From: Escherichia phage smaasur
Reading direction: 5' to 3' (one strand)
Sequence record: MN850625.1
DNA length: 41,110 nt
Part shown: piece after piece, positions 3,619 through 35,137 of the stretch
Layout: each line of letters opens with the position of its first letter
Numbering within the stretch: position 1 is the first letter of the stretch
Program-made: the position numbers and the translations under genes
The notes under the pieces: generated by a model
What the model was told of the DNA's origin: nothing
The model's database searches: none
What the model saw: only the letters and a program-made list of their open reading frames with translations

Positions 3619-4611
3619 TTAGGCTTCGGTGGTAACGACACCCACCACGTCAGGACGCTTCTGACCCACAGTGTACATGTGGAAGCTATCCAGAACGTTG
3701 GTCATCTCTTTCTCGTCATCCCATACGCGGTTGAACAGCGGCTGGGCTTCGACGGTAACGAGAGCCAGAGACGGGTCGAACACAATCAGCTTACGCTTGA
3801 TTTCGTCGGCAGTGACGTTGAAGTCGGCACCGAGCAGGTGGTCGGTGATTGCAGCCTGCGGGAAAGCATTGCTCTCAATCAGGCGAATACCGTTGACGTA
3901 CGCAACACGGCGCATTGCGAAGTCGTTCACACCACGGCCACCAGTGAACTCAACGTTCATCAGTTTCTTGTGCTCCAGCAGGATGCTGAACCACGCCGGG
4001 TCAATCAGCGTAACCAGACGGCCAAGGTCAGCATCGCGGCGAATGAACGCTTCGATAACTTTCTTGTGGCCATGCACGATTGCGCTTGCGTCGTCTTCTT
4101 CGGAAGCGACGGTGCCAGTCAGCGTAATCTTCTCTTTGATACCAGCGTTGAATGCGCCAGCCAGAGAAGTCGGAGGCACGAAGTCAGCGCACTTCTGGAG
4201 CTGAATTACGTGCGCTTGGTCGAACGCCTTAGCCTGTGCAGTACCCATGTTACGGGTCAGCTCAGCACGGAAGTCCGGCGCAGTCCAGTCATCCTGATAG
4301 TCAATCGGGATACGGATGTAAGACACGGTATCCACAGTGACAATCAGCTTCTCGGAGCGCACTGGCTGGTTAACCAGAGACTCGCCGGACTTACGACCTT
4401 TCACGGTCACGCTGCCGAGGCGGTCGCCACGCCAAGTGTTGGACTGGTTAGCCACGGACTTGAAGTTGGTCAGACCGGAACGGAAGATGGAGTTGTAAAT
4501 AAACTGGGTCTGCACGTCACGGTCATACACCTCAAGGTGAATGTCGTTGTCAGAGTTCGCGCCACCCCAGTGTGGACGGAACTGGTTCGGGGTATAGGAG
4601 TTAGCTGCCAT
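3619..4611 (-). CDS. major capsid protein
   Basis: 330 aa, directly downstream of the scaffold gene and upstream of tail tubular A. Has an AAGGA ribosome-binding site and is followed by a hairpin. Size fits T7-like HK97-fold capsid proteins. Call is positional plus size. Confidence 0.8.
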   Translation of the reverse strand: MAANSYTPNQFRPHWGGANSDNDIHLEVYDRDVQTQFIYNSIFRSGLTNFKSVANQSNTWRGDRLGSVTVKGRKSGESLVNQPVRSEKLIVTVDTVSYIRIPIDYQDDWTAPDFRAELTRNMGTAQAKAFDQAHVIQLQKCADFVPPTSLAGAFNAGIKEKITLTGTVASEEDDASAIVHGHKKVIEAFIRRDADLGRLVTLIDPAWFSILLEHKKLMNVEFTGGRGVNDFAMRRVAYVNGIRLIESNAFPQAAITDHLLGADFNVTADEIKRKLIVFDPSLALVTVEAQPLFNRVWDDEKEMTNVLDSFHMYTVGQKRPDVVGVVTTEA

Positions 4612-26447: not shown

Positions 26448-26837
26448 TTACTCCACTACCCAAAACAGTTCACCGTCATACGTCCAAGCGGTATGTTGCC
26501 CGGCTTCCATCTGCTCGCCTGTTTTGCTGACCAGCTTGCCAGCAGGCTTGCCCGGATACGGTGAATCCATGAAGATTGCATCATTGTCATCGGTCACTAC
26601 CATGATGCAGTCCTGTTCAAGAGCCTTACAGAACAGCGTAACAGCCTGCCTGATTTCGTAGATTCCATCGACGGGAAAGACCATGCTCAGCTCGTACTGA
26701 TTGTCGAACTTGCCCGTCAGTGTGACCGGAATCACTCCGAACATATCCTGCACCGTTCGCAGTGCCTTGCAATGTAGCGCCAGATTAACACACTCAGCGT
26801 TATTCGGACGATATGCGCTTGCATAGATACGGTACAT
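26448..26837 (-). CDS. hypothetical early protein (first gene downstream of the early promoter cluster)
   Basis: 129 aa; preceded by CTGGAGAAATAACT-ATG. Lies ~550-700 nt downstream of the sigma70-like promoters, giving a long leader comparable to the T7 early transcript. Confidence 0.5.
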   Translation of the reverse strand: MYRIYASAYRPNNAECVNLALHCKALRTVQDMFGVIPVTLTGKFDNQYELSMVFPVDGIYEIRQAVTLFCKALEQDCIMVVTDDNDAIFMDSPYPGKPAGKLVSKTGEQMEAGQHTAWTYDGELFWVVE

Positions 26838-27369
26838 AGTTATTTCTCCAGTTATTGGCTATTTTCAGGTGGATAGTGAACCCATTGTGACGCGCCGTAC
26901 AGTCTGCACTCAGTGGCATTGATTGGCTTGTCGGATTCACTACCCTGAAAAATCGCCCCGCCCATTTCGCGCTGTGGATATTGTCTGCATCCACTCTCAG
27001 GAGTCTTCCAGCAGTCCGTCGCGTATCTTGCTCACCGTTGCCAGCTAACAAGCCGTTTGACTACCCACCCGCTATACTCCGCGCCTTATAAGACGTTCGG
27101 GATTGTACTGATACTGCGCTGCGTCTATCGCGCTTCTCCGTTCCCATGCACCGGGCGCTACCCCTATTGCCTTTCGGCGGTGCCTCACCCAGTTCCAACC
27201 TGCGGCGGATACCCAGTGAGCCGTGACACTACGCGGCCAGTTTGCGTTCACTCAGAGCAGGATGCTTTCCATCCTTTCAACTCGGTGCTGATTTCATCAT
27301 ATCTGAATCAGCTTGTCAACTACTTTTTACTTCTGACTGACTGGCTTGCTACCCGTCAATCTGGAGCGT

Positions 27370-27398
27370 ATTACAGCATACTCATTTCACCTTGTCAA
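27370..27398 (-). promoter_or_regulatory. candidate host sigma70 early promoter (minus strand TTGACA-17-TGTAAT)
   Basis: On the minus strand: TTGACA (plus 27393-27398), exact 17-nt spacer, TGTAAT (plus 27370-27375). Points toward the early genes. Confidence 0.5.
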
Positions 27399-27506
27399 CC
27401 GTTTTATTCAGCGCCCATTCTGAGATGAATAACCCGTACCAGTTCGCCTGCGTGTGTTTTAACGTCTTTATCAATGACTGTTTAGCTTGCTGGCTGACGT
27501 GGAAGC

Positions 27507-27535
27507 ATTACAGCATAGTGAGCTTGCCTTGTCAA
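27507..27535 (-). promoter_or_regulatory. candidate host sigma70 early promoter (minus strand TTGACA-17-TGTAAT), second copy
   Basis: Same architecture: TTGACA (plus 27530-27535), 17-nt spacer, TGTAAT (plus 27507-27512). A weaker third candidate is TTGACA (27313-27318) with TGAAAT (27290-27295). Confidence 0.5.
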
Positions 27536-27779
27536 TACACTCCAGATTGTTAAAGAGCATGGCTAACCGTCTAGCCCACCGTGTAACGATGTTCTGTTAC
27601 CCGGCGATGAGAATTACAGCAAATCACAAAGAGCATTGCAAGTATTATTTTCACTGAATACCTCAAATAGTGGATAAGTTATTGTATTCATTGATAATAA
27701 ATATTTGATTGAATAGGTTATTGCATAGCTTACATACAGCAGAATAACCGTAAATAAATCCTTTTAAATCAATGAGTAA

Positions 27780-27794
27780 ATGAAAGTAACTGTT
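27780..27794 (+). repeat. repeated element ATGAAAGTAACTGTT (copy 4, inverted, at the edge of the T-depleted terminus tract)
   Basis: Exact 15-mer on the plus strand, opposite to all genes; 18-nt identity with copy 1 (ATGAAAGTAACTGTTGTG). Sits at the junction between an AT-rich segment (27640-27780) and the T-depleted tract. Confidence 0.6.
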
Positions 27795-27799
27795 GTGTA

Positions 27800-28380
27800 T
27801 AGCAGTAGCGATACGCAGCGTAAGCGACGCAGCACGCAGTGCGATAGCGGAGCGCGGAGCGGAGCGAATGAGATACGGAGTAGCGAATGAGTGAACGCGA
27901 ACGGATAGCAAGTATCAGAGTGTTACACAGTACACACAGCAGACACACAGCGACGCGATGAGCTGGAGGAGCTGGAGCGCAGGCGGTAGCGCACAGAGTA
28001 CACCGTACACAGTACCGCACAGACACACACAGCAAGCGAGCGCAGGCAGCAGCAGCAACGCACAGAGCAAGCGAGCAAAAGAGATAGATAGCCCCGCGCC
28101 CAGCCACCGACACACAGCAGCACCGCACAGCACAGCGCAGGCCAGCGCAGGCGCGTCCAGTGGTAGCAGTGGCGCAGCGCACAGCAGCAGGACACAGCAC
28201 CGCACAGCACGCCACACGGCAGACGATGAAACGGGCACGCGCGAGCTGTTACCGCACGCACGCGAGCAATACCGCACGCGCAGGCACACGCGCATAATGC
28301 GCACACGTCATGCACGCGCACGCGCACAGGCGTACGGGGGCGCAGGCGCTCCTTCGGGTCGAGGGAGGCCCACGCACAAA
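27800..28380. repeat. strongly T-depleted, degenerate short-repeat tract at the presumed genome terminus
   Basis: Plus strand is almost entirely A/C/G with reiterated CACAG/GCGCAG/CAGCAC units; my hand count gives about 8% T over 27841-28380, and 28021-28080 has none. Lies between the last late gene (endolysin, ends 28435) and the early promoters, where T7-like phages carry terminal repeats and short-repeat arrays. Confidence 0.6.
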
Positions 28381-28434
28381 TAGTCAATTTTCAAGCCGGG
28401 AAACGCCTGTTCTATGTCACAGCTTTCAATGCCC

Positions 28435-28971
28435 CTATAACGTCGCACAGTAAGCGCTACAGCGTTTTGCACGAGCAACCAAGGCATCCCTATACCGAAC
28501 GATTGTCGGGGCTGTAGAAGCCTTTAGGAACGCAATACGAAGGTCACAGATGGATGCTGCTGCGGAGTGAGGTTCCAGACGTTTGGCTGCTGCCACGGTT
28601 GCAGGGCCAATAACCCCGTCTTGTGCAACGCCGCATACCCGCTGTAGAGCTTTCGCCGCACGGCTGATACCGGAGTTGACACCGTAGTCGAACACGGCAC
28701 ATGCAATCGCAGGGTGTAGCTCGTCACCTTTGATGGGGTCGAAATACTCGGCCCGGTAGATAGCGTTGGCTTGCTCTTTGGTGAGCTGTTTGACAGGCAC
28801 ACAAATAGAGCCACCAAGCCCAGTAGGGACACCACAAATTCGGCCATCCAGTTTGCCATCACGAGCATCGCTAATTCCATGATTCGTTTCCCCTCCAGTG
28901 TCACCGGGCAGCTTGGTGTACCCGCCTTCTGCCAGCCCGGTGAACTTCATACAGATTTCAAAGTTAGTCAT
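28435..28971 (-). CDS. endolysin, glycoside hydrolase family 108-like with C-terminal peptidoglycan-binding region
   Basis: 178 aa. N-terminal FTGLAEGGYTKLPGDTGGETNHGIS matches the GH108 signature (EGGY...DxGGxTxxGI) as I recall it. Last gene before the terminus region. Confidence 0.7.
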   Translation of the reverse strand: MTNFEICMKFTGLAEGGYTKLPGDTGGETNHGISDARDGKLDGRICGVPTGLGGSICVPVKQLTKEQANAIYRAEYFDPIKGDELHPAIACAVFDYGVNSGISRAAKALQRVCGVAQDGVIGPATVAAAKRLEPHSAAASICDLRIAFLKASTAPTIVRYRDALVARAKRCSAYCATL

Positions 28972-29357
28972 TACATCCCCATAATGCTTGTGATAAAGGA
29001 CTGGAGCGCTGTGAGGTCGCCAGCCTTAATTGCCAGATACACACCGCTGCACAGGGATGCGGTTAACAGGCACCATTTGACGGCATGTGCTGCCGCCGTA
29101 AACAACTTACCGATATGGCTCATAGTTCTCTGGATATCCTGAATCTGCTCGACCACCAAGAGCTGCTGCTGAACCTGCTGCCAGCGCGAGTCGTTCTCAG
29201 CCAGCTTCGTGAGCATCGCAGCGTCGCCTTTCTCAAGGTTAGCGATTTGCACTTCGTGTTTGTCGAGGCGTAGTTCTACGGTCTGCATACGAGCCTCCAC
29301 TGCACCCATACGCGAGTGGATGTTAGGAGTCGGCTCCTTTCGTTTTGCTTCCGTCAT
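28971..29357 (-). CDS. lysis-cassette membrane protein (holin candidate): N-terminal coiled-coil region plus C-terminal hydrophobic segments
   Basis: 128 aa with strong GAGGAAGG ribosome-binding site. Hydrophobic stretches LFTAAAHAVKWCLLTASLCSGVYLAI and LTALQSFITSIMGM. Sits between the spanin-like gene and the endolysin. Holin role is inferred from position and topology only. Confidence 0.4.
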   Translation of the reverse strand: MTEAKRKEPTPNIHSRMGAVEARMQTVELRLDKHEVQIANLEKGDAAMLTKLAENDSRWQQVQQQLLVVEQIQDIQRTMSHIGKLFTAAAHAVKWCLLTASLCSGVYLAIKAGDLTALQSFITSIMGM

Positions 29358-29814
29358 CTCTTACCTTCCTCTTCCACGGAGATGGTACAAACCACATTAC
29401 CAAACCAAGAATACACGTAAGGCCCATGCCAAATGCCCACAATAAGCTGCGTGGGTCGCTCTGTGAGACGATAACAGTCTTAGCCTGTACGTTTCCTTGG
29501 GTCATCTGAGACCCCTGCTTAGAAGCGTTTACAGAGCCTCCTGAGACGTCCTTGACGGTCGTAGCGTTACTACCCTGTTTAGCGGTATCCACTTTCGCGT
29601 TACCTGATACGTCACCGACTTCGGTTTCGTCGGACTGTTTCGCAGTCACACCGATGCCTTGCTTCGTGTTCTCTGCACCTACCTGTGCCGTCAGTTCCGG
29701 CTTGTTGGGAGAGACAGCCGAAGTTACAGCAGACAGTGCGCTAGTTGCGGAGCAGCCCGTCAAAGTCAGAGACAATGAGAGGACTGCCCCGGCCAATAGC
29801 CGAGACAGTTTCAT
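29323..29814 (-). CDS. unimolecular-spanin-like protein (outer-membrane lipoprotein signal plus C-terminal transmembrane helix)
   Basis: 163 aa. N-terminal signal with lipobox LTLTGC; C-terminal hydrophobic helix LLWAFGMGLTCILGLVMWFV followed by basic residues; middle region has periodic T/K/Q/G repeats. Confidence 0.5.
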   Translation of the reverse strand: MKLSRLLAGAVLSLSLTLTGCSATSALSAVTSAVSPNKPELTAQVGAENTKQGIGVTAKQSDETEVGDVSGNAKVDTAKQGSNATTVKDVSGGSVNASKQGSQMTQGNVQAKTVIVSQSDPRSLLWAFGMGLTCILGLVMWFVPSPWKRKVRDDGSKTKGADS

Positions 29815-29824
29815 ACGCTACCTC

Positions 29825-30010
29825 TTATGCGTCAATGGCAGCCGTAGCTGCTTTAACACGGTCAATGTACACCTGATGCTCAGCCAGCAGGTCAGTGTCA
29901 GCCGTATTCAGGTGGTAGTCTTCCGTGTACACGTTGAGGTATTTGGCCAGCATGTTGCAGGCCGCCACCAGTTCCGCACGCTCAGCGGCGGTAGAAGTTG
30001 CTAAGGACAT
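29825..30010 (-). CDS. hypothetical small protein
   Basis: 61 aa ORF with GGGAGA ribosome-binding site; no hydrophobic segment. Confidence 0.4.
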   Translation of the reverse strand: MSLATSTAAERAELVAACNMLAKYLNVYTEDYHLNTADTDLLAEHQVYIDRVKAATAAIDA

Positions 30011-30021
30011 AAAATCTCCCG

Positions 30022-30693
30022 TTAGGAAAGTGTAATGCCAGTGATAACACCACCAGCGACAGTGAAGGTTACGGTATCGGTGTACGTGCCAGTCGGCTCT
30101 ACACCAGTGAGGGTGGCACCGTTCGCTACGCCAGCAATGGTCGCAGGAAGTGTACCGTACGTGATGACACCGTTGGACACGGTGAAGGTCGCGTTACCGA
30201 TGGGGGTGCCAGCGGAGTTGCGAATCTGGATGTTGCTGCCACTGGCGATTACAGCCGTGGTTGCTGGCAGCCGGGCGGCGACCAGTACACCGTTGCTGTC
30301 CACATAGGAGGTGGAGGTTACACCAGCCGCGCCATTCACGTTCTGTACAGAGATGGAGTCGTTGTTGGACTTCATACCGACAGTAGCAGGCAGGGCGACA
30401 GTGACCGACTCACCATCCACAGCGAAGGTGGCAGCCTTCTGCACAGTACCGTTAGCGTTCACCACAGTGGTTTCAGCGCCGTCTGCGACAATAGCAGAGC
30501 CTTCCGGTACAGTGGTGTAGCCAGCGTCTACCAGAGCCGTTAGGAGCTGCGTAATAGCCGCGTCGATTGGCGCAGCCTGCTCAGCCGTCAGTGTCTTCGT
30601 GTTGTTCACGAAGCGTTGGGTCAGATTGGCGGCGATGTTGGCACGGTAGCCAATATCGTACCGCTGCTGATTAGTGATAGAAATCAAAGACAT
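30022..30693 (-). CDS. Thr/Gly/Val/Asn-rich beta-repeat protein downstream of terminase large subunit (fibre- or adhesin-like)
   Basis: 223 aa; start overlaps the terminase large subunit stop (TAATG). Repeats such as TFTVSNGVITYGTLPATIAGVANGATLTGV and TVTFTVAGGVITGITLS. Function unknown. Confidence 0.45.
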   Translation of the reverse strand: MSLISITNQQRYDIGYRANIAANLTQRFVNNTKTLTAEQAAPIDAAITQLLTALVDAGYTTVPEGSAIVADGAETTVVNANGTVQKAATFAVDGESVTVALPATVGMKSNNDSISVQNVNGAAGVTSTSYVDSNGVLVAARLPATTAVIASGSNIQIRNSAGTPIGNATFTVSNGVITYGTLPATIAGVANGATLTGVEPTGTYTDTVTFTVAGGVITGITLS

Positions 30694-32453
30694 TAGCGGA
30701 TTCTCCGACGAGTGCCACGGACACGCTTATGACTGCGCCACTTCGAGTCGTCGTACCCCATAGGGTTGGCAACAAACTCACGAGCGGCGGCCACTTCACG
30801 CTTTTGGGCCTCTTCATGTTCGTCTTGCTGGAGTACCTCGGCGTGGAGATACACGGCAGCGGATAGGGTTTCAATGCGGTCATCGTGCGGGATGGAGCCT
30901 TTGTCCTGCGTCAAGTTCTGCATCTGCCAGAACAGGCTGTATTCCCGGCCACCGTTGTTCATGGCCCGGCACAGGCGCAGGTCTTCCTCAACAACCGACC
31001 AGTGGATTACCACGCGGTGGCGCTGGAGGATAGGACTCAACCGATTGATGATACGCACTTCTTTCTGGCCGCTGGAGTAAATACCCTCACAGCCGATTGT
31101 CAGTCCTTGACGCTTAATCTCACCACGGTACATGTTGGTCACGGCACCGTGGCCCATGTTGTCCTCAATGGTGATGTGCTGGACACCCAGCTCGTGGCAC
31201 CACTCTACCGCCGCCTTGATGTTCTCTTCCGTCTGGCCGCCGTGGTAGACGTGCATACCGATGACGTGGATAAACGGGCCGATAGAAGCTGTGGCGAAGA
31301 GAACGGATTCGTCCGACCCACCACCAGCAGGGTCAAGAAACGCCTTGGTATTCGTGAATGGTACATACGTCTCAGAGAAGTCAGCGGCCAGATATAGCTG
31401 GGCGCGAGCGAGTGGGAAGTCCATTGGCAGCTCGGCCAAGTGACGCGAATGATTCGACCAGTGCAGATACTCCGGCGCAGACTGCGGCGAGCCGTGGAAG
31501 AAGATAACATCCCGGATATGCAGAGTCTGTTTCAGTGCGTCTGACAGTGATGTGTCCAGCATGAACTGTAGCTGGAAGCCTGCCTGCTGGTAGTCTCGTT
31601 CGTTCTGTAGCTGCTTCTCTTCGGAGTAACGCTGAGGGTCAGTCTGCGCACCACGGTTCCCAAGGATACCGTAACCAGTACGCAATTCAGGGTGGCCATC
31701 CATCTTCTGCTTAATCCACGGGGCCAGACAGCCGCCGTAGCGTTCTTCTTCCTCAACCGTTGGGAAACGACCGGGCCAGATGCGAACGTCGAAGCCACGC
31801 TGCGGGAGCGTGTTGTAGATGGAGTCCTGAGTCTGTGGCGTGCCGAGGTACAGAATCTCTGCACCGTCGTTGGCGATAGCCGCGAACTCTTTGGTCAGGG
31901 TGTTGATACGGGCGCGGTTGGCAGGAGAGCTACCGTTACTGGTAGTCTCCACGTCATCGGCAATCAACAGCGATACGTGGTTCCCCTGCAACTGGCCGAA
32001 GATACCGACCGCTTTGACAGAGGGCTGTTTGTCAGGAATACGAAATGCGTGGTGTACGTCGAAACCGTCTGTATAAGAGGTACGTGCGCCAGCGCGAGTT
32101 TCAGGGCGCAGCCATTCCAGTCTGTCCCATTGCATAATGGCAGACACGATGGCGTGCGAGAGCGTACCCGCATAATCGTCAGAACCGGATACCAGCAGCA
32201 CGGTGGCGTTAGGCATCTGGACGAACTCATACAGGGCACGGGCAATGCCGATGGTGGACTTAGCCTCACCGCGCTGAGCCATGACGCACTTGTTCTTGAG
32301 CGTCCGGTCGGCCATGTAGCGGCCAATATCGAGCTGCATTTCAGTGAGGTCAAAGCCCAGCCATGCGAAGTAGTCATGCAGGAACAGCGGGAAGTTGTTC
32401 TCGTAATGGGCGCGAACAATTCCTGCCATCACCATGCGGCGTTGTAAATCCAT
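30693..32453 (-). CDS. terminase large subunit (T7 gp19-like)
   Basis: 586 aa, the same length as T7 gp19. [26 protein letters not shown] matches T7 [45 protein letters not shown] matches [32 protein letters not shown] matches ALAHDDRLDALALGI. Confidence 0.95.
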   Translation of the reverse strand: [586 protein letters not shown]

Positions 32454-32743
32454 TAGTGCATCATCCCGCTATCTTCTGCAATTGCTTTGATGGCAGAGTC
32501 CATGATGGACTTCCGCTCCGTATCCGACTTCTCTTTGTTGAGCTGCTCTTGCAGCGCCAGCAGGTCGTCGGCGTGGTCAGCATCTGCTTGGATGCCATTG
32601 TCTTTCAGGAACTGGCGAAGTACCGACAGCTCGGCTGCTGGCATTGGCTCGTTACCGGGCTTCATGCACTCAGACAGCCGAGTGGTCAGATACTCAACCA
32701 GCATCCGGTGCAGCCCATCGAGCTGCTTATTCACGGATGCCAT
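32453..32743 (-). CDS. terminase small subunit (T7 gp18-like)
   Basis: 96 aa helical protein immediately upstream of and overlapping the terminase large subunit start; T7 gp18 is 89 aa. Confidence 0.6.
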   Translation of the reverse strand: MASVNKQLDGLHRMLVEYLTTRLSECMKPGNEPMPAAELSVLRQFLKDNGIQADADHADDLLALQEQLNKEKSDTERKSIMDSAIKAIAEDSGMMH

Positions 32744-32752
32744 GATTACTCC

Positions 32753-35137
32753 TTAGATGAATGCGACCGGGTACGTGGCGGCGAGCTGAGTACCTGCCGG
32801 AATCGCAGTTACGATTGCCGGACTGATATCAATCCGCACCGGGTTCCCGATGTTGTTGTCTACCTGATACGGCGCTCGCGTCACAGTGACCGTAAGCGTA
32901 CCGCCACTTGGCCCAGCGCCCGGAATGTTCAGGCGAGTACCAGCAGAGATAGGCTTATGATACAGCCACGAGGTCGAGGCTTGAGTACCTTTCGGGGTCA
33001 GGTTCTGCTCCAGATACGTCTGGCCAGCGGCAGCAGCACGCACCTTGAAGTTGTTGCCGTCATTCGGGATGTAGGCACCGAACCGGGTCACAATGAAGTT
33101 ACCACCCGTGCCGTCCGTCTTGAACAGTACCGTACCTTCGCAGAACTCTTTACCAGTAGGGAACTCCCCACCAGTCAGGGTTGCGAGGTCGTTCGGCAGT
33201 GTGTACATGCGGTTGACCGGAGACAGGATAACGCCGACGTTGCCTTGGATGTTAGTGTACGGAATAGCACGTACGTTGGAGTTCAGCGTACTGATATCCG
33301 AGTAGCGAGCTTTACTGTACAGGGCACCCTCGGTGTTGCCGGGGCCGTAGAAGTTCACGTTCACCATGTTCAGGCAGGTCTTGCGTCGCGGGTACACGCC
33401 GTTGGAGGACGTACCGCCGCTGGAGTCATCGCCTACACAGTCGAAGTCAACACCCGTCACGTTGGTCATGTTCAGGAGTGTGGCCACACCAAAGAGGCTC
33501 AGACGGTAGCAGTGGATGTTCTCAAGGTGGTACACGTTGGTGTTCACATCATCGGAGCCAACACCAGCGTAGACACGCCCGGTCTTGGTGTAGATGTTGC
33601 GCAGCGTCATGTTGAACGATGGGTTGGATGCACCCGGCACGCCACCAGCACCAGCTTGGTTAGAACCCCACTCGCACATGACAAGACGTACCGCAGCCGG
33701 GTCAGTACCAGTGCTGCCAACGATAGGCTCACCGTACACGCCGTCAATGACAATATCCTTGCAGCCGTAGGTGATAACGCCAGCAGCCGTCAGACCTGTG
33801 CCGTTGGAAACAGTCAGGTCAGGGTTGGCATGTACGTCGTACACCGTGCAGTTCTTGGACACCTCGAAGTGGATAACCTGACGCACCCCACGCGGAGCAT
33901 GGACACCACGGACTGTGATGTTCTTCGCGTATTGGGTTTCAGCAGCATCCCAGCCAAACGGCCCTTGACCAGCCAGACCAATCCCGATACCCCAGTTGGA
34001 TACGAAGGATGGGTTGGAGGTTGGGTTGATACCGTTGATATTTTCGAGGTAGATGTTCTCAATCGACAGGCCACCATCATAGTGCTTGTTGATTACGTTC
34101 ATCTCAATGCCGTCGCCAGCCATATCCATCAGGGCGATGTTGCGAATCACACCGTTGTCAATGGTCTCGCCAGTACCCTGCTGGAGAATGCCGAAGTAAC
34201 CATTACGGTGTACTCCGTTCTCGATGACATAGCTGCCCCCGGCGATGTTACCTTGGAACAGGATGCTGGCAACTTTCGATGCCGAAGGGTGGTCAGTGAA
34301 CTCGTAGTCAGCAATGCGCACATTGCCGCCCCAGTAGCAGACACGAACCTTTGATGCAGAGAAGTTGCGGAACGTAGCATTCAGCAGACGGATATCCGCT
34401 GTACCGTTCCACGTACCGCCGACAACCTCAATGCCGTCCATAGTGATGGTGGAGTTCACAGTGCCTTCCCAACCGCGAGCGTCCACAACCTTGTTGTTGG
34501 CTTTGGCGTAGTCGAAGCAGGCTTGGCACGCAGCGGCAATAGAGGCGTAGCCAGTGTTGTTGGTGAACTCAGACAGGCAGACGGTATCCTGACGGTCGAG
34601 GAACGTGCCACCGCCGAGAGTACCAATCCACTTACCGCCGTCATTCATCGCCAGCGCGATGGCCAGCGCAGAGTCAGGAATATCGACCAGCGGCACCATG
34701 AAGGGTTGGCCATTGCTGTCGAAGCCCAGCGCCTTGTTACGGCGGCCTGCGACGTTAGGCAGTGCGTTGATTGACACCTCAGAGTTTGGTACGCGCAGGG
34801 CGCGGTCAAGCGGAGCCAGCCATGCTTCCTGCGTCTCTTCTGCCTTGAAGAGAATCTGCTCAAAGTTCTCGTCGAGGTTGCTGCCAGTGAATGCAGCGTC
34901 CTGACCGAACTTGTTCAGCAGCACTTCTGAGGTGTACCGTTGGAGTCGGACAATCACCCCGGCGAGCGGGGCGGTGTCAAATACGATTTGCTTGGTCACG
35001 GAGTTGTAGGTGTACCCGCTCGTCTGGAGTTCGGAGTTAAGGTACACCTGAATCTGCGTGAACACTCGTTGTTCAAAGGTGACAAGGAACGCGGTCTGCG
35101 TTCCGTTTGCCACGTATGCGTTGTAGCTATTGGCCAT
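32753..35137 (-). CDS. tailspike: T7 gp17-like N-terminal anchor fused to a right-handed beta-helix (pectate-lyase-like) depolymerase domain
   Basis: 794 aa. N-terminal ~120 aa follow the T7 tail-fibre anchor pattern. Central region is rich in Gly/Asn/Val/Thr repeats typical of parallel beta-helix polysaccharide depolymerases. Follows the internal virion proteins. Confidence 0.7.
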   Translation of the reverse strand: MANSYNAYVANGTQTAFLVTFEQRVFTQIQVYLNSELQTSGYTYNSVTKQIVFDTAPLAGVIVRLQRYTSEVLLNKFGQDAAFTGSNLDENFEQILFKAEETQEAWLAPLDRALRVPNSEVSINALPNVAGRRNKALGFDSNGQPFMVPLVDIPDSALAIALAMNDGGKWIGTLGGGTFLDRQDTVCLSEFTNNTGYASIAAACQACFDYAKANNKVVDARGWEGTVNSTITMDGIEVVGGTWNGTADIRLLNATFRNFSASKVRVCYWGGNVRIADYEFTDHPSASKVASILFQGNIAGGSYVIENGVHRNGYFGILQQGTGETIDNGVIRNIALMDMAGDGIEMNVINKHYDGGLSIENIYLENINGINPTSNPSFVSNWGIGIGLAGQGPFGWDAAETQYAKNITVRGVHAPRGVRQVIHFEVSKNCTVYDVHANPDLTVSNGTGLTAAGVITYGCKDIVIDGVYGEPIVGSTGTDPAAVRLVMCEWGSNQAGAGGVPGASNPSFNMTLRNIYTKTGRVYAGVGSDDVNTNVYHLENIHCYRLSLFGVATLLNMTNVTGVDFDCVGDDSSGGTSSNGVYPRRKTCLNMVNVNFYGPGNTEGALYSKARYSDISTLNSNVRAIPYTNIQGNVGVILSPVNRMYTLPNDLATLTGGEFPTGKEFCEGTVLFKTDGTGGNFIVTRFGAYIPNDGNNFKVRAAAAGQTYLEQNLTPKGTQASTSWLYHKPISAGTRLNIPGAGPSGGTLTVTVTRAPYQVDNNIGNPVRIDISPAIVTAIPAGTQLAATYPVAFI

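Follow-up and report, generated by a model that had tools for sequence, protein, structure and literature searches.

What is the function of a 223-aa protein encoded between the terminase and the lysis genes of Escherichia phage smaasur, and does it belong to the head, to the tail or to the lysis machinery? The window considered here, i.e., the whole stretch of 41,110 nucleotides that was analysed (MN850625.1), is a complete, circularly permuted, reverse-oriented podophage genome (Autographiviridae, Bonnellvirus), and every credible gene in it lies on the minus strand. Across the 5 kb surrounding the 223-aa gene, the DNA is 98% identical to that of Escherichia phage J8-65. An earlier note on this DNA had placed an ORF of 223 aa at 30022-30693, and exactly this ORF is found there, on the minus strand, which the note did not state. 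Both peptides that it quoted are also present, GVITYGTLPATIAGVANGATLTGV at residues 175-198 and TVTFTVAGGVITGITLS at the C-terminus. It had suggested a beta-rich fibrous or Ig-like surface protein and named a second receptor-binding protein, a decoration protein, and a secreted or lysis-associated factor as possible roles.

Among these options, the decoration protein is the one that the present analysis favours. Very probably, the 223-aa product decorates the capsid: a dimeric clip would occupy quasi-2-fold interfaces between capsomers, a fibre of four beta units would extend outward, and a 61-aa “claw” protein would sit at other 2-fold sites. The grounds for this assignment obtained here are homology, predicted folds, repeat architecture, synteny and the homology of the capsid protein.

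The gene and its neighbours

On the minus strand, the block is arranged in the order tailspike colanidase (794 aa, 32753-35137), TerS (32453-32743, upstream of TerL), TerL (30693-32453; Pfam PF22530 at 2.1e-24 and PHROG terminase families), the 223-aa gene (30022-30693), the 61-aa gene (29825-30010), spanin (163 aa, 29323-29814), a probable holin (128-aa ORF, 28971-29357) and the GH108 endolysin (28435-28971). The 223-aa gene is located immediately 3′ of TerL, its own ATG overlapping the TerL stop (TAATG), with a GGAG 9 nt 5′ of the ATG; the 61-aa gene has a strong SD sequence, GGAG, 5 nt before its ATG. Two antisense ORFs within the 223-aa gene (30035-30307 and 30311-30520, plus strand) are not considered genes, given that all credible genes of the genome are on the minus strand. 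Homologues of the 223-aa protein are conserved in 59 phage records. It matches PHROG 9732 at 4.7e-59; PHROGs places it in families of unknown function only, and a Pfam scan of the protein gives no family at E ≤ 0.1.

The neighbouring lysis genes have features of their own. The spanin (29323-29814, minus strand) bears an N-terminal lipobox (LSLTLTGC) and one C-terminal transmembrane segment (residues 125-143, hydropathy 2.01), a layout that, judged by its sequence, corresponds to a unimolecular spanin and not to an Rz/Rz1 pair. The 128-aa ORF (28971-29357, minus strand) overlaps the 3′ end of the spanin gene and probably encodes a holin, since a single C-terminal hydrophobic segment and a weak XhlA match are found in its product. 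Both PHROG 35530 and the J8-65 annotation (105 aa) span only its residues 24-128, and therefore its true start is probably internal. Further on, positions 26840-28430 contain no credible ORF, and the right end of the J8-65 record falls at about 28102, which places the physical ends of the genome here, in a permuted assembly, along with its terminal repeat and early control region; a search for tandem repeats in 26800-28450 found none.

With spanin, holin and endolysin genes as neighbours, the protein might instead be a non-structural, lysis-associated or secreted factor. A repeat-bearing relative also lies beside the lysis cassette in the unrelated siphovirus FP1, and the homologue from phage Peat1 is annotated as a “type VII integral membrane protein”. 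However, the Peat1 label is unsupported by Pfam, and the 223-aa protein has no signal peptide, no lipobox and no hydrophobic or transmembrane segment: its N-terminus is polar, and its maximal Kyte-Doolittle mean over 19 residues is 1.25, compared with 2.01 for the transmembrane segment of the spanin. Moreover, homologues are physically present in virions, in PhiM1 (PMC11440229) and, by LC-MS/MS, in Ar-KM. A role in lysis or secretion thus has a negligible probability.

The earlier note regarded the location itself as unusual, and on this point comparison with relatives leads to the opposite view. A paw-type gene (the name is taken from the PhiM1 protein described below) and a claw gene for 60-64 aa lie together between TerL and spanin in J8-65, Lidtsur and ROV85 (Bonnellvirus), LIMEzero (Waewaevirus), Klebsiella phage IME308 (Drulisvirus) and PhiM1 (Phimunavirus). 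As the position of the gene pair is conserved in four genera, this location is the norm in the clade. One point against the decoration assignment is the translational coupling to TerL: it is odd that a protein needed at about 120 copies per head should be coupled to a low-copy one.

The PhiM1 alpha-paw and the putative N-terminal clip

A search of 5.8 billion proteins yielded 53 relatives of the 223-aa protein. When a profile of 43 sequences (the query and 42 of these 53) was run against all PDB chains, the sole significant match was the “Alpha-paw decoration protein (gp43)”, 8VB0_J (E 1.9e-36, covering residues 106-223); the second-ranked match had only E 0.2. In BLASTP, identity to PhiM1 gp43 is 58% over the C-terminal 84 aa (E 7e-23). 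Entry 8VB0 describes the asymmetric unit of the capsid of Pectobacterium phage PhiM1 (Eruera et al. 2024, PMC11440229). In this phage, gp44 (alpha-claw, about 6 kDa) is a helix-turn-helix protein that homodimerises into a helical bundle, and gp43 (alpha-paw) consists of a gp44-like clip and a flexible C-terminal fibre, the “forearm” (PMC11440229). Cryo-EM has located gp43 on the capsid at quasi-2-fold axes, and it takes up interfaces flanking the hexamer-pentamer interface (PMC11440229). Paw and claw are present in PhiM1 at a ratio of 2:5. The earlier note's option of a decoration protein is thus supported by homology to a protein whose place on the capsid has been seen directly.

The likeness extends to the whole build of the protein and to its genetic surroundings. 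In both phages, a helix-turn-helix clip of ~60 aa forms the N-terminus, and beta units of ~40 aa make up a C-terminal fibre with a conserved cap at its end (...TGTYTxTVTFTVAxGVITxIxLS); the gene lies between TerL and spanin next to a ~60-aa claw gene, the PhiM1 record having the 179-aa gp43 and the 62-aa gp44 at this place; and the capsid proteins are homologous. There are differences as well. The smaasur protein has four units in 223 aa, whereas gp43 has three in 179 aa, and the order of genes is paw then claw in the window but claw then paw in PhiM1. The clip sequences are distant, and the residues reported to contact the major capsid protein (MCP) are not kept in position: Arg15 and Asn20 of the PhiM1 paw correspond to Gly15 and Ile20 in the window, with Arg17 and Asn19 nearby, in an alignment of ~26% identity that is unreliable.

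Codons 1-62 of the paw gene (30508-30693, minus strand) encode the part that resembles an alpha-claw, as indicated by AlphaFold2, hhalign and PDB matches. AlphaFold2 (43-sequence alignment, mean pLDDT 86.8) predicts helices at residues 8-30 and 37-56 of the paw, and the 61-aa protein is likewise predicted as a helix-turn-helix with helices at 8-30 and 39-60 (pLDDT 85). In addition, the 61-aa protein matches the N-terminus of PHROG 9732, the same PHROG as the 223-aa protein. A BLASTP search with the 61-aa protein found nothing in PhiM1 gp44 and nothing significant in the paw N-terminus, which made profile comparisons necessary. Three profiles were aligned pairwise with hhalign, those of the 61-aa family (A2), the paw N-terminus (A3) and the clip (claw) motifs of PhiM1 and Drulisvirus (A7). 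The probability is 92.5% for A2 with A3 (E 4.7e-7), 97.2% for A3 with A7 (E 3.5e-11) and 95.5% for A2 with A7 (E 1.5e-8).

Searches of the PDB with these profiles point in the same direction. Claw-type decoration proteins make up four of the five best matches to A3 (8vb0_J, 8vb0_H, 8eld_H and 23sf_G), and the top match to A2 is 8vb0_J, residues 1-58. Both profiles retrieve 8vb0_J (paw), 8eld_H (Gp48 of HRP29, which we take to be phage Buco) and 23sf_G (“decoration protein gp5”), and 8vb0_H (claw) is retrieved by A3 only; the E-values against the clip chains, 0.003-1.4, are individually marginal. The proteins gp47 and gp48 have been named as the surface decoration of Buco (10.64898/2026.05.18.726046). 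In length and predicted helix-turn-helix fold, the 61-aa protein is like PhiM1 gp44 (8VB0_H), HRP29/Buco Gp48 (8ELD_H) and 23sf_G (60-62 aa), the similarity in sequence being at the profile level only. As far as profiles and predicted folds tell, the 61-aa protein is a paralogue of the paw N-terminal clip and the counterpart of the PhiM1 gp44 alpha-claw. By the same analogy, codons 1-62 of the paw gene would encode a homodimerising capsid clip.

The presumable binding partner of both proteins is the MCP of the window (330 aa, 3619-4611, minus strand). In a phmmer search of the PDB, it matches 8eld_A (HRP29 Gp37, 5.9e-91), 23sf_I (1.8e-86), 8vb0_A (PhiM1 MCP, 1.9e-80) and 9s9b_A (3.9e-70), and claw-type decoration chains are present in three of these four entries with a homologous MCP (8ELD, 23sf and 8VB0). 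Identity to the PhiM1 MCP is 44%. In PhiM1, Asp21 and Asp86 of the MCP have been reported to contact the clips (PMC11440229); in the window MCP, Asp21 is kept and Asp86 is replaced by Glu.

Because the clip similarity is at the profile level only, a different anchor has to be considered. The 223-aa product might be a virion surface protein related to the alpha-paw only in its C-terminal repeats, with an N-terminus that attaches elsewhere (at hexamer centres, 3-fold axes or the portal vertex) or does not form a PhiM1-like dimer. The strong similarity to gp43 is indeed confined to the repeats, and the N-terminal match is weak, without positional conservation of the contact residues; taken as single sequences, the two clips are only weakly similar, which counts against the decoration assignment in its full form. 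Besides, forearm repeats are found elsewhere on unrelated N-terminal domains, and only 52 of 193 fetched relatives fit the Bonnellvirus-type clip profile. Against this stand the profile-profile comparison, which gives 97% for the N-terminus with the clips of PhiM1 and Drulisvirus, the helix boundaries, predicted to be the same as in the claw paralogue, the presence of a claw-only paralogue in the adjacent gene, an arrangement shared with PhiM1, Drulisvirus and Ar-KM, and the homologous MCP. An anchor of another kind is accordingly given a small probability.

The preferred reading, a PhiM1-like clip at inter-capsomer interfaces, can be worked out as follows, with dimerisation, binding sites, stoichiometry and function all carried over from the PhiM1 structure. 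In the paw, the first ~60 residues are predicted to fold as a helix-turn-helix, and two such clips would pair into a four-helix bundle spanning the quasi-2-fold interface between neighbouring capsomers of a T=7 head of the HK97 fold; each clip monomer would touch three major-capsid subunits. The remaining 156 residues would form four tandem beta units of ~40 residues each, a short, flexible fibre pointing outward from the head. The bare clip, i.e., the 61-aa alpha-claw, would fill the remaining 2-fold sites, and both proteins together would coat the head at roughly 1:1 with the capsid protein. By analogy with PhiM1 and other decorated phages, the clip most likely cements the capsomers. More speculatively, the forearm may display a fast-evolving surface of variable length for weak adhesion to the host or to the environment.

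The forearm and its relatives

The forearm is encoded by codons 68-223 (30022-30492, minus strand). A repeat HMM built from family members divides it into units at residues 68-106, 107-147, 148-187 and 188-223, the last one being a terminal cap unit; the consensus of the repeat family is VVANGATVTVQNSAGTATGTGTATVAAGVLTNVRLPATVA. In Smith-Waterman comparisons between the segments, five of the six pairs score 3.8-5.5 SD above composition-preserving shuffles. Thus, the internal repeats suspected in the earlier note exceed chance both by shuffle z-scores and by the repeat HMM. From residue 74 on, AlphaFold2 predicts beta strands only (block pLDDT 89-95). The note had also proposed a beta-rich, fibre-like surface protein built of repeats and recommended structure prediction as a check; the AlphaFold2 model and the repeat HMM agree on this point. 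The PhiM1 forearm is unresolved in 8VB0, and the fold, oligomeric state and function of the smaasur forearm are read from monomer predictions.

No structural neighbour of the forearm model is found among PDB structures. As for the Ig-like character that had been suggested for the protein, the forearm has no Pfam match at E ≤ 0.1 and no match of any significance to an Ig domain (Hoc/BIG2-type) in structure searches, so that this part of the suggestion is not supported. The repeat profile also weakly resembles ribosomal protein L6 in the N-terminal part of the latter (E 0.2; LPxxxxVxxxGxxVxVxxxxG), which was set aside as probable chance.

The number of units varies among relatives. The 192 relatives fetched carry 1 (10 proteins), 2 (52), 3 (76), 4 (40), 5 (12) or 7 units (2), and within Bonnellvirus the number ranges from 1 to 4. 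Pantoea phage ROV85, a Bonnellvirus, has in gp16 (102 aa; locus L011 1501-1809) a clip and the terminal cap unit only; three internal units have gone in a clean in-frame loss. ORF51 of LIMEzero (150 aa; locus L012 1501-1953) shows one clear unit and a divergent C-terminus. The make-up of these two proteins indicates that the forearm gains and loses whole units. Among metagenomic relatives, P0066 (618 aa) and P0068 (338 aa) have at least seven detectable units, and P0066 contains in addition a stretch of ~210 residues (297-505) in which no unit is detected. The family as a whole is modest in size: in a set of 1.84 billion proteins, 490 cluster representatives reach E ≤ 0.001, and 289 of them reach E ≤ 1e-10.

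Repeat-bearing relatives with another N-terminal domain are encoded directly downstream of the major capsid gene in the Bordetella siphovirus FP1 and also on a 99-kb metagenomic contig, where the capsid gene that precedes the repeat gene is Gp13-like. The place directly downstream of the major capsid gene is the classical slot of a decoration gene. The genomic contexts of two further relatives, P0032 and P0043, are uninformative on head association, and the Kp34likevirus paper has SDS-PAGE only, with no mass-spectrometric identification of the homologue. In FP1, the order of genes (locus L005 4707-8948) is major head protein, the repeat protein gp60, gp61, gp62, spanin, holin and endolysin, and the forearm-repeat gene is therefore found just upstream of the lysis cassette in this siphovirus as in the podoviruses; this proximity may be a coincidence or may reflect a co-travelling module.

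The siphovirus relatives bear on one more possibility, namely, that the protein is a second receptor-binding fibre associated with the tail, alongside the 794-aa colanidase tailspike. The fibre-like, repeat-built composition would suit such a role, as would the fast divergence among close relatives, which resembles that of receptor-binding proteins, and the top Foldseek matches of the model include phage fibre and RBP chains. Yet these structural matches are non-significant (E 0.3-0.8), the N-terminus of the paw looks like a claw-type clip and has no tail-adaptor domain, and the siphovirus relatives are encoded beside the capsid gene and not among the tail genes. The solved homologue, PhiM1 gp43, sits on the quasi-2-fold axes of the capsid and not on the tail (PMC11440229). 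The second tail fibre or tailspike envisaged in the earlier note has a very slim chance of being correct, and the forearm is considered below as part of a head decoration protein.

Divergence, comparable systems and significance

The two decoration genes differ sharply from their surroundings in the rate of change. Between smaasur and Lidtsur, amino acid identity is 94.5% for the MCP, 94.1% for TerL, 92.1% for the endolysin and 85.8% for the spanin, but 45.5% for the paw and 42.6% for the claw; no other gene of the block evolves nearly as fast as these two. In comparison with J8-65, the paw gene shows 13 non-synonymous and 13 synonymous codon differences, and the TerL gene none and 24, respectively. 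Inside the paw, variation is highest in the first two units and lowest in the cap. The hypervariability of the pair relative to the MCP may result either from diversifying selection or from cassette exchange.

The unit number of 1-7, the appearance of the same module on unrelated capsid anchors of podoviruses and siphoviruses, and the ~45% identity of paw and claw compared with 94% for the capsid together lead to a further, tentative suggestion. The forearm might be a display module of variable copy number that diversifies rapidly, rather than an inert fibre, and the outer layer of the head might be under diversifying selection; this is possible, though on balance doubtful. Such a layer could serve, for example, as an adhesin for the host surface or for mucus, or else as a shield or decoy against capsid-sensing host systems.

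Ar-KM, a phiKMV-like Pseudomonas phage, likewise encodes one protein that is a clip alone and one that joins a clip to a display part; in this phage, gp55 forms four-helix-bundle dimers stapling the capsomers (bioRxiv 10.64898/2026.05.18.726046). Its partner gp54, the “capsid spike”, has a helical core (residues 1-59) and an outward domain of ~45 residues; both proteins are seen on the capsid, LC-MS/MS has found gp54 in virions, and the divergence among gp54 homologues sets in near residue 59, right behind the clip (10.64898/2026.05.18.726046). The smaasur pair is alike in this division of labour, gp54 being compared by its description, and unlike in that gp54 has a single C-terminal domain of ~45 residues and the smaasur protein has four units. 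The 102-aa gp16 of Bonnellvirus ROV85 represents a minimal one-unit form, as in Ar-KM gp54. BFVD matches to the paw model are Pseudomonas phage proteins of 101-147 aa (phi2, LKA1 and phiNV3), those of LKA1 and phiNV3 being weak (E 0.1-0.2 over 39-108 columns).

Fibre- or Ig-bearing decoration proteins of the head are otherwise represented by T4 Hoc, T5 pb10, N4 gp17 and phi29 gp8.5. The smaasur paw would share with them the general combination of a capsid anchor and an outward display domain, one that assembly can do without and that presumably adheres weakly (partly PMC11440229). In contrast to the site predicted for the paw, these proteins bind hexamer centres; their folds are unrelated, being either Ig-like or those of a trimeric helical fibre, and neither Pfam nor PDB structure searches give a match of the paw to any of these types.

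The basic identity of this type of protein has been known since the structures of HRP29 (2023) and PhiM1 (2024). What is new here is the range of 1-7 units, the single unit of ROV85, the ~45% identity of paw and claw beside 94% for the capsid, and the occurrence of repeat-bearing relatives after the capsid gene in two siphovirus-type contexts. Two “hypothetical” genes of J8-65-like coliphages, together with many relatives in four genera, thereby gain names and a testable role. One of these genera, Drulisvirus, includes Klebsiella phages of a type under consideration for therapy. In a protein built of a clip and a display part, the latter tolerates the loss or gain of whole units, with one in ROV85 and four in the smaasur phage, and this suggests a natural site for the engineering of capsid display. 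Finally, the fact that both decoration genes diverge so strongly while the MCP hardly changes provides a lead on the selection that acts on the outer surface of phage heads.
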